DNA of 64,000 bases, taken from IMG/VR virus record IMGVR_UViG_3300021431_000113, positions 1-64,000 of that record; one strand, written 5' to 3'. Under the pieces are notes generated by a model, which was not told the origin of the DNA, did not search any database, and saw only the letters and a list, made by a program, of their open reading frames with translations. The translations under genes and the position numbers were made by a program. Below, piece by piece: positions 1-24,869 of the stretch (position 1 is its first letter; each line of letters opens with the position of its first letter). The DNA comes from a virus (Duplodnaviria > Caudoviricetes).

Positions 1-7
1 TGATGAA

Positions 8-81
8 TTGGATAAGTGGGATTCGAACCCACATCCTTCTGCACTTATAGCAGCGCTTTCTCCTCATTAAGCTATTATCCG
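8..81 (-). tRNA. atypical tRNA-like gene, isotype undetermined (loop TATAAGT, nominal TAA)
   Basis: Acceptor CGGATAA/TTATCCA (C1:A72 mismatch), D stem GCTT/AAGC, T arm GTGGG-TTCGAAT-CCCAC; anticodon stem only 4 bp (CTGC/GCAG). Confidence 0.6.
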
Positions 82-208
82 TATATAAACTCGCCAGTTT
101 ATATATTTTTAGTATGCATACATTTTCTTTTTAGGACAGAAAAATTAATACCTGCTGTTCTTCTTTCTTTTACTTCGCAAGAACTCAGTTTCAAGTAACG
201 AAGGCGCG

Positions 209-283
209 CTGGCACGGTAGGATTCGAACCTACGGAAACTGGCAGATTAACAGTCTGTTCGCATACCACTTGCGGACGTGCCA
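209..283 (-). tRNA. tRNA-Asn(GTT)
   Basis: Acceptor TGGCACG/CGTGCCA, anticodon loop CTGTTAA, T arm GTAGG-TTCGAAT-CCTAC. Confidence 0.9.
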
Positions 284-617
284 AAATTAAAGAGGGGAAG
301 GAAGAGTTGCGGATAGGACGTCCGCCTCTTTCTACAAGGTCTTACATCTTCAGTAGATACTCATAGTTACAATCATTACTTTCACTACCTTATAGCCTAA
401 CTTCCACTGGAGTATTTCTTAACTCACTCTCTTATTTTATATAAATGAAACAGTTTCACAGCTTTTAGCAAGTCCAGTCCGATTTTATCTTGCTTTCCTG
501 TACACCTGGCACACTCTTTATTCCCCATTTGGAGCTAATCATTCCTCCTAGCGTGTTACTCTTAACAAGGTTTGCAACCCTTTGTTAAGTTTCTTTTCTG
601 TTTCATTTTCTATATAT

Positions 618-646
618 ATTATACTAAAATTTTTTAAAAATTGCAA
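618..646 (-). promoter_or_regulatory. sigmaA-type promoter inside the tRNA cluster
   Basis: Minus strand TTGCAA-N17-TATAAT. Confidence 0.75.
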
Positions 647-658
647 AAATTTTAGTAG

Positions 659-729
659 AACGGGTAAACGGATTTGAACCGTCACCAAATGCTTGGAGGG
701 CACTTATGCTACCATTACACCACACCCGC
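659..729 (-). tRNA. tRNA-Gly(TCC), C at position 33
   Basis: Acceptor GCGGGTG/TACCCGT, anticodon arm AGTGC-CCTCCAA-GCATT, T loop TTCAAAT. Confidence 0.88.
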
Positions 730-811
730 ATATAAAGCAGATTATTGCGAACTTGCCATCTGCCAGGGCGGCACCTTTATTTTATATAGCGAAGGTCATG
801 TATCTCCGCTA

Positions 812-881
812 AGTGCCGAGTTGGAGTTGAACCAACCTCACTGATTTTGCAGACCAGCCGCCTTCCGCAGACATTCGACAC
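812..881 (-). tRNA. tRNA-Cys(GCA)
   Basis: Acceptor GTGTCGA/TCGGCAC, anticodon loop CTGCAAA, T arm GTTGG-TTCAACT-CCAAC, U73. Confidence 0.85.
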
Positions 882-963
882 ATATTCCTACTCACCATAT
901 ATTGAATTCGTCCGGACTCGTCCAACCTTTTGGGAGGGCTATCATATGGCTTTTGGAAATAAG

Positions 964-1048
964 TCGGGATAGATGGACTCGAACCACCGATGTTTCTTAT
1001 GTCTGGGTTTACAGCCCAGTGCAATCGCCACTCTGCTACCATATCCCG
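964..1048 (-). tRNA. tRNA-Tyr(GTA)
   Basis: Acceptor CGGGATA/TATCCCG, anticodon arm CTGGG-CTGTAAA-CCCAG, long variable region, T loop TTCGAGT. Confidence 0.9.
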
Positions 1049-1054
1049 ATGTTG

Positions 1055-1128
1055 TGGAGCTAACGAGGATCGAACTCGTAACCTTCTGTGTGCAAAACAG
1101 ACGCTCTCCCAATTAGAGCTATAGCCCC
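1055..1128 (-). tRNA. tRNA-Ala(TGC)
   Basis: GGGGCTA/TAGCTCC with G3:U70, loop TTTGCAC, T loop TTCGATC. Confidence 0.93.
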
Positions 1129-1137
1129 ATAATAAAG

Positions 1138-1209
1138 TGGGAAGTATAGGAACTGCCCCTATACGCCCTGGGCTTCAACCAAGCGCTCTTCTAATTGAGC
1201 TAACTTCCC
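1138..1209 (-). tRNA. tRNA-Phe(GAA) with non-canonical T loop
   Basis: GGGAAGT/ACTTCCC, anticodon arm CTTGG-TTGAAGC-CCAGG, T arm ATAGG-GGCAGTT-CCTAT. Confidence 0.85.
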
Positions 1210-1220
1210 ATATAATACTT

Positions 1221-1381
1221 ATTCTTGGGTGGGGATTTACACCCCACATAAATACCAGTTCCCATATAGCTTTTACTACTATATCTCAATATTCTCGTCA
1301 AATATACGCCTATCTACGGCTCAGAACTTGTTTCCATATTTCAGGACTACACTATGCGTCTACTTATTCCGCCACCAAGAA
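1221..1381 (-). ncRNA. 161-nt tRNA-like RNA with large structured insert in place of the anticodon arm
   Basis: Acceptor TTCTTGG/CCAAGAA, D arm TGGCGGAATAAGTAGACGC, T arm GTGGGG-TGTAAAT-CCCCAC; about 105 nt between the D and T arms. Confidence 0.75.
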
Positions 1382-1384
1382 CAA

Positions 1385-1704
1385 TGGACCTGGCGAGAGT
1401 CGAACTCGCGTCTCAAAATACTATCTTACAATCCTTTTACGCAATAGGCTTTAGGGAGCCACCCAACATAAGGTAATAAGGTTTACCTACTCCACCAGGC
1501 GAAAGTGTGTCCGCCGCACTCAACTGTTTCAGTTTTCGATCCTCAAAGTTTACAGAAAACAGATTACTCTACACTTCTTTTGGAACCTAATAGGATTAGG
1601 CAGCCATTCTATATTCGTTTGCGTTTATTTTTAAAGGTGACTTAACGATGTCGGTCGTGCGAGATTATAAGCTTCATACCCTGATCGATACCCCTTACAA
1701 GCCC
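1385..1704 (-). ncRNA. ssrA: tmRNA, tag peptide ANEYRMAA*
   Basis: 5' GGGCTTG pairs with 3' CAGGTCC-A (G3:U70); T arm GCGAG-TTCGACT-CTCGC; resume context AAATAAAC-GCA, tag ORF 1622..1596 ends GCT GCC TAA. Confidence 0.93.
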
Positions 1705-1744
1705 TAATTTAATTATTATTATTTCTCTTTCATTTTCTATAATA

Positions 1745-1773
1745 ATTATAACAAAATTTTAATAAAAATGCAA
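1745..1773 (-). promoter_or_regulatory. sigmaA-type promoter upstream of tmRNA
   Basis: TTGCAT-N17-TATAAT with TG before -10. Confidence 0.75.
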
Positions 1774-1774
1774 G

Positions 1775-1858
1775 CGCAGTGTGAGGGAGTCGAACCCCCG
1801 CTCCGTTGCCGAAGGACGATTTTCAAGACCGCTTAGTGCGCCGACCACAATACACTGC
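1775..1858 (-). tRNA. tRNA-Ser(TGA), atypical D arm
   Basis: GCAGTGT/ACACTGC-G73, loop CTTGAAA, long variable arm, T loop TTCGACT. Confidence 0.82.
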
Positions 1859-1996
1859 AAATTATAATCATATTTCATTTATTCCTTCTATTCTGCCCTC
1901 CGAAGGACTGAGAGGTTGCTGAGCAACTAACTTTATACACATTACGACCTCACTCTCGGTCATTGGTCACCATCTCTGGCGAAATATGATTATGAA

Positions 1997-2082
1997 CGCG
2001 GAGAGGAAGATTCGAACTTCCGAAACGAGATTCGTTTAACGCCTTAGCAGGGCGCCGCTTTCAACCACTCAGCCATCTCCGC
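1997..2082 (-). tRNA. tRNA-Ser(GCT)
   Basis: GCGGAGA/TCTCCGC-G73, anticodon arm CGCCC-TGCTAA-GGCG region with loop CTGCTAA, long variable arm. Confidence 0.92.
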
Positions 2083-2221
2083 AGGTGTAAGGGTGTCACT
2101 AAGCAAAACTTCTCCCTGTTTTACCCCTTACTATTTACACCGACTGTCGCTATCAATGTAAACTAGGACATAAGTTATTCTCAAGTCAGGCTACGACATT
2201 AATACCTTTCTTGACGCTTGT

Positions 2222-2294
2222 AAGCACCGACGGGATTCGAACCCATGTTACCACCGTTAAAGGGCAGTGTCTTAGACCACTTGACTACGGTGCA
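2222..2294 (-). tRNA. tRNA with TTA (ochre) anticodon in a tRNA-Glu body
   Basis: GTCAAGTGGTCTAAGACACTGCC-CTTTAAC-GGTGGTAAC is a Glu-type body whose usual loop CTTTCAC reads CTTTAAC here. Confidence 0.88.
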
Positions 2295-2471
2295 TAAACT
2301 AGAATATTATCGCGAAATTATCTAGGAGATGATTAACCGATACCTCACAAACATATCTTTTTACTCAAAAGACCAGAGGGGTTCTTCGTTAACCCATAAC
2401 GGACTGCTCTTAGCTCACAAAGTTTAGCAGCCAAAACTCGGATACTTTCACAGCGTTTTCTTGCTGGTACG

Positions 2472-2542
2472 AGCTCCCGCCCAGACTCGAACTGGGATTG
2501 ATAGATTACAAATCTACTCGCCTACCATTAGCGGATAGGAGC
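2472..2542 (-). tRNA. tRNA-Thr(TGT)
   Basis: Anticodon arm GTAGA-TTTGTAA-TCTAT, T arm CCCAG-TTCGAGT-CTGGG. Confidence 0.88.
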
Positions 2543-2648
2543 ATGTGCGGGTACGTTTTAGGCTACCCTCCCGCTTTAATGCCACGTCGGATTTTCAATT
2601 AGGTCGGACGCGCGACCTTTTTTACTCATTTCTTTATCTTACATATAA

Positions 2649-23603: not shown

Positions 23604-23734
23604 AAGTGCTGAATTTCGGGATGACAGAATTTTAACATAAATAACAGAAATTTGCTATTGACAAACCTGACTCATGTGTGGTATAATATTGCGGCGCACT
23701 GACGAGGAGTGTGATTGTCAGCGCGCCGCCCAAA

Positions 23735-24071
23735 TAAAAAAGAGCAGAAATACTCTGCTCTTATTATACCATAAACGGTTGACTTTGTCAACCCTTATGT
23801 GGATTTTTTTGAGTGACTGCCAAGTCCAAACCTCTTTCCCGCTCCTCACGGTACTCATCACTCTGAGGGCTTTGTGCCTACTTATTTCAGTGCTACTGTT
23901 CTTCACAACTGCCCCATGTGGGTTACACGGCTGAAGGTGTTCCTCTTGTATTAACGGCTCACTCTTTAAAGGCTTTACACCTCAACTTGCGAGGATTTAT
24001 TACCTACCGACCTTTCTGCTTGGAGAGGCTTAATACGCCGTGGGTTTGGTGGGTTTTCCTTCCCTTACTGT
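23735..24071 (-). ncRNA. candidate ~335-nt structured ncRNA of unknown family
   Basis: Promoter 24078-24106, terminator 23735-23762, long-range helices CCAAACC/GGTTTGG, CACGGC/GCCGTG, GTATTAA/TTAATAC. Confidence 0.62.
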
Positions 24072-24115
24072 ATCTTTATTATATCATAGGGGTTGAGGTT
24101 TGTCAACCCCCTTTT

Positions 24116-24334: not shown

Positions 24335-24389
24335 TTTTGTTTCCTCTCTTTTCCTTTTGATGATTTAATTATATCATAGGGGTTGAGGT

Positions 24390-24567
24390 TTGTCAACCCC
24401 TTATCTGAATATTTTTCAAAATTTTTTGAACTTCTTTAAGCTCTTCTTTGGTCATTGCGTATCCTTCTTCTGCGTAATAGCCAGCGACTATTTGAGTAAT
24501 AGTATAAGCGTTATCTTTAATTGCTTCCTCGACATCAAACTTAATTGTATTAATTGTATTTTCCATT
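24390..24567 (-). CDS. possible small acidic/basic protein not in ORF track (MENTINTIKFDVEEAIK...)
   Basis: GAGAGG RBS and promoter upstream; end coordinate approximate. Confidence 0.4.
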
Positions 24568-24668: not shown

Positions 24669-24795
24669 ATTTTGCGCGATTTTGTTCTTGACAAGTCCAT
24701 GGCTCATATGTTATAATTTTTCGGATAGAAATCGGGCGCGCCGATTAAAGCGCGCCCATAGGAAAGGAGGATTTTGCAGATTCTAGCTATTTGAT

Positions 24796-24867
24796 TGCGC
24801 CGCACGGGAATCGAACCCGCGTTGACTCGATTAAAAGTCGAGTGCATAACCATTCTGCCAACGGCGC
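24796..24867 (-). tRNA. tRNA-Lys(TTT), isolated from main cluster
   Basis: GCGCCGT/GCGGCGC-A, anticodon arm CTCGA-CTTTTAA-TCGAG, T loop TTCGATT. Confidence 0.93.
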
Positions 24868-24869
24868 AT

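Follow-up and report, generated by a model that had tools for sequence, protein, structure and literature searches.

A candidate structured RNA of a new, rare family, carried as an optional early-region cassette by phages of rumen or gut Bacillota

The closest described counterparts of the locus considered here are the phage-borne RNAs ROOL and GOLLD (about 580 and 800 nt, respectively; known from phages and prophages of the rumen and of Lactobacillales): structured RNAs without open reading frames, transcribed from promoters of their own, found in the rumen habitat and distributed patchily among tRNA-rich phage genomes. The candidate RNA described below shares all of these properties; however, it is much shorter (240-290 nt) and far rarer, it has no match in Rfam at E<=10, and nothing suggests that it assembles into multimeric cages. 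The pRNA of phi29 is likewise a structured phage RNA made from an early promoter. In contrast to it, the present RNA (again with no Rfam match) belongs to another type of phage and is absent from most relatives of its carrier, so that it is not expected to be an essential part of a packaging machine. A third set of systems (6S RNA, CsrB/RsmZ and phage decoy RNAs) resembles it solely in a proposed, and conjectural, mode of action, in which an abundant structured RNA displays conserved unpaired motifs; it has neither the rod-and-bubble shape of 6S nor the array of repeated GGA hairpins of CsrB/RsmZ. Closer at hand, two other orphan RNAs, one at 13001-13352 of the same stretch of DNA and one in a related phage locus (L054), show the same arrangement of a consensus early promoter, an ORF-less and GC-richer body and a following promoter or terminator within an early region, and the L054 cassette even begins with the same 30-nt leader. 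Their bodies are nevertheless unrelated to it, with no similarity in sequence or by covariance model (the model of the present RNA, R1, is silent on the L054 record).

The DNA analyzed (‘the window’) comprises 64,000 nt of a 76-kb IMG/VR phage fragment. The terminase of this phage has its closest counterparts in Geobacillus virus E3 and in Enterococcus phages of about 140 kb, which fits a Bacillota host and the high density of consensus sigma-70 promoters. We consider the locus at 23735-24071 to contain a real, functional structured non-coding RNA of a new and rare family absent from Rfam, and place the probability of that reading at roughly 0.6, a figure that applies to the existence of a functional RNA of a new family and not to any mechanism. 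Phages of about 130 kb that infect rumen or gut Bacillota would carry its gene in their early (host-takeover) region, as an optional cassette.

Organization of the RNA gene

The elements of the locus, all on the minus strand, are as follows.

24106-24078 (minus): promoter Pa, composed of TTGACA (24106-24101), a 17-nt spacer and a TG-extended TATAAT (24083-24078)
24071-24043 (minus): 5' leader of about 30 nt, with a small hairpin, H1 (GGG 24064-24062 with CCC 24053-24051)
24042-23811 (minus): conserved RNA body, modeled as two domains (a 5' domain closed by helix H2 and a 3' domain made of H7-H12)
23810-23804 (minus): A-run, a likely UP element, outside the conserved RNA
23791-23763 (minus): promoter Pb, a perfect consensus, lying between the conserved body and the terminator and outside the conserved RNA
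23762-23735 (minus): intrinsic terminator (hairpin 23762-23740) with a 10-bp stem and a T-run, present in the window phage only

Pa matches the sigma-70 consensus at 12 of 12 positions, with an extended -10 element in addition, and its sequence recurs without a change as the promoter of the 72-aa gene upstream (24396-24368); the homologous copies described below possess promoters of their own, of the TTGACA/TGnTATAAT type, at the same distance from the RNA. Transcription is predicted to start at about 24071 and to proceed through a region of about 260 nt (24071-23811) without a credible ORF. The gene, with its own consensus early promoter, is predicted to be transcribed independently. The RNA body ends with GUCACUC (23817-23811), directly before the A-run. 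The sole ORF on the minus strand is a 62-aa frame with a GTG start and no ribosome binding site (RBS), which crosses the next promoter and the terminator.

The first-pass annotation of this DNA had proposed an ORF-less RNA of about 335 nt, GC-richer than its flanks and extending from the promoter at 24106-24078 to the terminator at 23762-23735, as one transcription unit. Much of this description stands: the promoter, and the terminator hairpin with its T-run, are found exactly where they had been placed, the GC content of the RNA region (0.45-0.47) exceeds that of its flanks (0.29-0.36), and both a search for ORFs and the frame-breaking indels among homologues exclude translation. The notion of a single promoter-to-terminator unit does not survive, as the interval joins three things (the RNA, the second promoter Pb and the terminator). 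The 3' boundary had been placed about 75 nt too far, the conserved body ending at about 23811.

The terminator would stop transcripts from Pa at about 337 nt. The predicted start site of Pb is located inside the 5' arm of the terminator hairpin, and by implication only transcripts that began at Pa would carry the whole hairpin. Transcripts from Pb would then read through for want of a complete hairpin and those initiated upstream would terminate, a layout that is absent from both homologous loci. The two homologues available as DNA (L016 and L061) do not share the terminator, and neither has one before the next promoter, so that in two of the three copies the transcript has no defined 3' end. 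Just past the terminator of the window phage, a counter-oriented perfect promoter leads into a very GC-rich hairpin (23658-23729, plus strand), from which a transcript could run antisense into the RNA gene; similar units of a counter-promoter and a GC-rich hairpin close the cassettes that follow the RNA at about 2545-2600 of L016 and 330-400 of L061.

Homologues, antisense variants and the cassette system

The gene downstream of the RNA encodes a 152-aa protein with hundreds of relatives, and this provided a route to 51 related phage loci, which were fetched in two scans. A single one of these related loci, in a record of a rumen phage (L016), has the RNA, with 76% identity and at an equivalent position and orientation, while a scan of JGI metagenomes added a contig (L061) with a copy that is 82% identical (284 bits); the DNA homologues are L016/L056 and L061. 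The covariance model R1 scores 284-346 bits on the three DNA copies. Applied to the whole records of 50 of the related loci, 13 of which are at least 90% complete, it found no copy beyond that of L016, so that the RNA is absent from 49 of 50 related records, the 13 nearly complete ones included; a DNA search of the remaining, 51st, locus found none either. Within the genome of the window phage R1 recovers the RNA itself and no paralogue, and the other matches obtained in DNA searches of related records are to the shared 30-nt leader only.

Wider searches returned little else. There was no blastn match among the INPHARED phages, six scans of IMG/VR for exact or gapped patterns, each drawn from a different conserved block, retrieved the L016 record only, and a 17-nt pattern with 16 specified bases gave seven matches in IMG/VR, six of them by chance. 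The JGI metagenome scan yielded, besides the one true match (L061), three chance matches in a GC-rich coding region, and a 20-mer scan of the genomes of 185,579 prokaryote species produced chance matches only. The literature contained nothing that we could find specific to this RNA.

An additional and rather unusual source of homologues is found in protein databases. Opposite the RNA, the DNA strand is rich in pyrimidines and poor in stop codons, and gene callers have therefore produced spurious antisense ORFs from it. A query with the antisense ORF of L061 retrieves P0121, P0127 and P0133, which are L061-like, as well as six diverged variants (P0122, P0123, P0124, P0125, P0130 and P0132/P0134); the assemblies behind them are those of ENA, Logan and JGI, and each was found on one or two contigs, two of which measure 47 and 78 kb. 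The entries P0121-P0125, P0127, P0130 and P0132-P0134, 84-172-aa ‘hypothetical proteins’, are antisense translations of the RNA gene and its promoters, in other words artefacts of gene calling. At least seven further variants (P0122-P0125, P0130, P0132/P0134 and P0133) are known solely in this form. The family comprises about ten known variants, all very rare, given that each antisense-read variant sits on one or two contigs. Sequence blocks held in common and helices that covary, the signs by which a new family would be recognized, are present across the three DNA copies and these seven or more antisense-read variants.

The surroundings of the RNA point to an exchangeable element. The early region barely aligns between these phages outside promoter and operator modules, and the RNA is among its best-conserved stretches: against L061 it scores 323 bits, with everything else in the early region at 81 bits or less, and against L016 it is the top-scoring segment of that region (207 bits). 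In all three DNA copies the order is promoter, leader, RNA and then directly another promoter in the same sense, but each copy continues differently after that second promoter, the window with no more than a terminator, L016 with a mini-ORF and a GC-rich structure, and L061 with a gene for a 47-aa protein. No co-occurring partner gene is shared among the three contexts. The leader of about 30 nt recurs before ordinary genes in two other loci (L003 and L055) and before the unrelated, ORF-less cassette of about 230 nt in L054. A common leader and promoter layout with a varying payload thus suggests that the RNA is one exchangeable payload of an early cassette system, and the distribution described above that the putative RNA gene is an accessory, optional cassette. 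Such a payload fits an accessory role in host takeover or counter-defence better than a cis-regulatory one.

Several features nearby deserve mention in their own right. The 72-aa gene upstream is flanked by identical promoter blocks (24381-24399 and 24091-24109, minus strand), each with its -35 hexamer inside a GGGGTTGA...TCAACCCC hairpin, and these duplicated modules look like recombination points for cassette exchange. In L054 (positions 1499-1770; IMG/VR G014, a complete phage of 120 kb), a consensus promoter and a leader that is 94% identical precede a GC-rich body and a strong terminator; this cassette has no Rfam match, a fold z-score of -1.8 and no copy in the window, and is probably another orphan phage RNA family of the same cassette system. 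The second promoter of L016 (2320-2545, plus strand) leads to a mini-ORF of six codons with a strong RBS, then to an apparently structured, GC-rich 150 nt and a terminator, a further candidate for a small RNA or else a leader-peptide unit, and in L061 (950-1110, minus strand) a promoter followed by about 100 nt without an ORF, directly upstream of the promoter of the RNA, may be a further small non-coding cassette. The window also contains a cluster of 11 tRNA genes at 1-2600 (minus strand), one of which has the anticodon UUA (an ochre suppressor, 2220-2295), a tmRNA gene at 1385-1704 (minus strand) with the tag ANEYRMAA, and a lone tRNA-Lys(UUU) gene at 24795-24868 (minus strand), 700 nt upstream of the RNA.

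A proposed fold and its relation to known RNA families

A model of 12 helices was built by hand on the alignment of the three DNA sequences. Besides H1 in the leader, it contains the following elements.

24042-23926 (minus): 5' domain, closed by H2
24042-24037 with 23931-23926 (minus): H2, CACGGC with GCCGUG; pair 38-144 occurs as C-G, G-C and U-A
24026-24015 (minus): H3, with an unchanged loop CCAAGC; one pair occurs as U-A, G-U and probably G-C (P0123)
24014-24010 with 23973-23969 (minus): H4
23994-23980 (minus): H5, CCUCG/UGAGG; pair 82-94 changes from C-G to U-A in P0124 and P0125
23945-23934 (minus): H6, absent from L016 and also deleted in P0125
23922-23920 with 23915-23913 (minus): H7, CCC/GGG, unchanged in the DNA copies
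23911-23888 (minus): H8, a hairpin of variable length whose stem covaries (G-C, C-G, U-A)
23887-23866 (minus): the most conserved block, consisting of UAAGU, H9 (AGGS-ACAAAG-CCCU) and CAG; a candidate functional site
23863-23811 (minus): 3' three-way region, formed by H10, H11 and H12
23863-23857 with 23817-23811 (minus): H10, GAGUGAU with GUCACUC
23851-23839 (minus): H11, with three adjacent compensatory pairs
23833-23822 (minus): H12

In the aligned DNA copies 97.9% of cells are paired under this model, as compared with 28-47% after a shift of the 3' partners by 1-3 columns, and six pairs change on both sides, a number reached by 7 of 500 shuffles. Three sequences are available as DNA, and the remaining variants are read through degenerate codons, some pairs being assigned by parsimony. 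The codons of the antisense ORFs are collinear with frame 2 of the window and frame A of L016, and for this reason single RNA bases can be read back from them; the procedure depends on that collinearity and, at some positions, on the choice of the most parsimonious codon. The changes obtained in this way are listed below.

P0124: Ala GCC to Pro CCN and Ala GCT to Gly GGN, converting H2 pair 38-144 from C-G to G-C
P0124: Val GTG to Glu GAR and Thr to Ser, converting H2 pair 34-148 from A-U to U-A if Ser is TCG
P0132/P0134: Arg CGC to His CAY and Ala to Val GTN, converting H2 pair 38-144 to U-A
P0124 and P0125: Arg AGG to Lys AAR and Pro CCT to Leu CTN, converting H5 pair 82-94 from C-G to U-A and G85-U91 to A85-U91

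Taken together, the alignment and the antisense codons reveal compensatory changes in six helices (H1, H2, H3, H5, H8 and H11). One such pair is found in H1 (G-C to U-A, in L016) and one in H3 in the three-sequence alignment, while in H11 the stem reads CCG/CGG or AGC/GCU, with a probable fourth state in P0133 (probably A-U). The codon changes in H5 favor the CCUCG/UGAGG hairpin over the alternative offered by RNAalifold. The tip of H8 is 6 nt shorter than that of the window copy in L016 and 17 nt longer in L061, and H7 is probably shifted or altered in a subgroup whose antisense ORF reads TLGY at that point. For H10 the evidence is mixed, with one possible compensation (P0123) and one mismatch (P0133), and the helix competes with a local hairpin, CUCA/UGAG. 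The G-U pairs of H3, H10, H11 and H12 fit the minus strand only. Thermodynamic stability alone is uninformative, given that the minimum free energies of the cores of the three copies (z = -0.45, -0.77 and -0.50) are no better than those of shuffled sequences; the z-score of -2.4 for the whole interval is owed to the terminator and to a hairpin in the -35 region. These comparisons suggest an RNA of two domains, a multi-branch 5' domain closed by H2 and a 3' domain that would combine a variable hairpin, a near-invariant block of 22 nt around a small hairpin and the three-way region.

The complementary segments from which a fold had been sketched in the first-pass annotation (CCAAACC/GGUUUGG, CACGGC/GCCGUG, GUAUUAA/UUAAUAC, CCUC/GAGG, CCC/GGG and CUCA/UGAG) are all present where they had been located. 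Comparison retains one of its three long-range helices, CACGGC/GCCGUG, which is the covarying H2. The CCAAACC/GGUUUGG helix is rejected because of mismatches in both L016 and L061, and the GUAUUAA/UUAAUAC helix, in which L061 and P0124 have mismatches and which L016 and P0125 lose together with H6, is treated as optional or peripheral. A further pairing of AACCC near the 5' end with GGGTT near the 3' end is not borne out either; it joins the leader to the -35 region of Pb, which is not conserved.

Conservation along the RNA is strikingly uneven: blocks of 28-39 nt with no change or a single one alternate with hypervariable, indel-rich patches (60% divergence) that retain the potential to form hairpins. 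The block at 23887-23866 is identical, save for one S position, in all three DNA copies, and every antisense ORF that extends across it has LRAL(S/C)LL there. Two short segments that flank H11, AGUA (23855-23852) and GAA (23838-23836), are also unchanged in the DNA copies, and nearly all of the antisense ORFs imply them through their LLI and TSF codons. An AGUA opposite a GAA on either side of a helix is the consensus of the loop E, or sarcin-ricin, ‘S-turn’, and the arrangement here (AGUA directly before the covarying H11, GAA directly on its 3' side) would make this a putative S-turn. The likeness is at the level of sequence: H11 has a stem of 3-4 bp and a loop of 5-7 nt, unlike the GAGA tetraloop of the classical motif, and a resemblance to helix 95 of 23S rRNA is seen in the window copy and is missing from the others. 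The unchanged loop CCAAG of H3 could also pair with an equally unchanged CUUGG of the 3' domain, to the exclusion of H12.

The RNA matches no described family. Rfam 15 (which includes GOLLD, ROOL, raiA, OLE, RNase P, 6S, SRP, T-box, riboswitches, EAR and pRNA) identifies, at gathering score across the whole window, tRNAs and the tmRNA elsewhere and nothing at the RNA; at E<=10, with short inputs of the three DNA copies, it returns sub-threshold chance matches and no family common to all three. ARAGORN predicts 13 tRNA or tmRNA genes in the window, none of them at 23735-24071. The earlier statement that the family was not recognizable is therefore confirmed by the search that had been proposed for it, and its central reading, an independently promoted, ORF-less structured RNA, draws support from these null results, the homologues, the uneven conservation and the compensatory changes.

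Particular identities were also considered and set aside. A C/D box RNA is recognized by C (RUGAUGA) and D (CUGA) boxes, guides of 10-12 nt and K-turns. Weak matches to the archaeal type (9-12 bits against thresholds of 38-50) were obtained for L016 and L061 only, and arise because H11 in those copies reads CUGAUGAAGCUGA; D boxes are missing from the window copy, and the spacers measure 2-5 nt. Likenesses to a T-box, RNase P, SRP and the sarcin-ricin loop itself, as identities for the RNA, were noted by eye, have no model support, and are each absent in at least one copy.

Candidate functions and competing explanations

As to function, our preferred but tentative suggestion is that of an early RNA acting in trans, by binding a protein or serving as a decoy. 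The RNA would be made in quantity early in infection and would display its conserved unpaired blocks on a folded scaffold; those blocks, acting in trans, would bind and sequester, or redirect, a host or phage protein, a job comparable to that which other early cassettes of the region would do with small proteins. A bolder version, which we hold to be rather doubtful, is that the RNA represents a new class of counter-defence or host-takeover RNAs, in which the 22-nt block and the S-turn arm would mimic a host site (for example a ribosomal or tRNA-like one) and decoy a host nuclease, toxin or sensor; phages would exchange it as a unit of promoter, leader and payload, in slots otherwise taken by small anti-host proteins.

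We rank the alternatives in the order of a base-pairing regulator, a cis-acting antitermination element, a ribozyme and a non-functional or DNA-level element. A regulator or ‘sponge’, whose long, conserved and unpaired blocks would find their partner in a conserved RNA of the host or the phage (an mRNA, rRNA, tRNA or sRNA), would account for blocks of 22-39 nt that are kept more tightly than folding alone needs and for a promoter of the early type; yet no complementarity longer than 12 nt is found within the 64-kb window, and a multi-branch fold of 260 nt is unlike typical antisense sRNAs, which leaves it improbable. A role in cis, either in processive antitermination (as for HK022 put or the Bacillus EAR element) or as an insulating RNA that alters the polymerase started at Pa ahead of its encounter with terminators and cassettes further downstream, is suggested by the position directly after a promoter and by the lack, in two of three copies, of a terminator ahead of the following cassette, the window copy being the one with a strong terminator after it. 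We regard it as unlikely, since the downstream content differs in all three copies, each with a consensus promoter interposed between the RNA and that payload, and since the RNA is far larger than put or EAR and matches no Rfam model, that of EAR included. Small ribozymes are common in phage DNA, and the three-way junction of the 3' domain, whose conserved strands carry first UGAUGAG and then GAAAG, resembles a hammerhead and would be the catalytic core of a self-cleaving or other ribozyme. The hammerhead core, however, consists of C3-U4-G5-A6-N7-G8-A9 abutting stem II, G12-A13-A14, stem III and an H17 other than G before stem I, and the RNA departs from it in having a G at C3, three additional nucleotides (GUA) before stem II, GAAAG in place of GAA and a 4-nt junction, GGCR, that puts a G at the cleavage position H17. 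No hammerhead or other ribozyme model matches at E<=10, and catalysis of this kind is very unlikely.

At a similarly low level we place the idea that the locus does not work as RNA at all, but is a decaying cassette remnant or a DNA-level element with an incidental transcript (a protein-binding platform, or an R-loop or primer origin). The insignificant folding z-scores, the leader common to ordinary mRNA cassettes, the RBS-like purine runs within the RNA region and the very patchy distribution would all suit it; what it leaves unexplained is the very uneven conservation, the compensatory changes that keep hairpins in six helices and the G-U pairs specific to one strand, and the absence from 49 of 50 relatives does not suit an origin. 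The least credible alternative by far is that the locus encodes a protein: the antisense ORF, which reaches 174 aa in L061, a small peptide on the sense strand (MS..KEVWTWQSLK..) or a product made when the ochre-suppressor tRNA reads through TAA. Gene callers have repeatedly called the antisense ORFs, the phage does possess a tRNA with the anticodon UUA, and one frame is open from 24334 to 23903 if TAA is taken as an amino acid. The antisense frame is, however, split between two frames in the window and interrupted in L016, where no more than 39 aa stay open, it shifts from one frame to another between variants, and an antisense ORF would cross two promoters; the sense peptide has no RBS and changes non-conservatively (TVRSG/KLMKL, W/R, Q/R) where base pairs are kept; and TAA as a sense codon does no more than fuse the upstream gene across the promoter of the RNA. 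Indels of 1, 4, 16 and 6 nt between L016 and the window, and of 17 nt in L061, rule coding out.

The reading of the locus as a functional structured RNA, if correct, bears upon how the genomes of these phages are interpreted. The early region of a phage is usually taken to encode one small host-takeover or anti-defence protein after another; some of the early cassette slots of these phages would instead hold structured RNAs without known relatives, several of them in the window phage, and this RNA appears to move between phages that are otherwise diverged. Its near-invariant blocks, covarying stems and spread among diverged phages make it a good candidate for a specific interaction with the host, and it is small enough to be synthesized, probed and used in pull-down experiments. 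Finally, the spurious antisense ‘proteins’ that have been called on this RNA in protein databases can be mined for further RNA homologues and for covariation.
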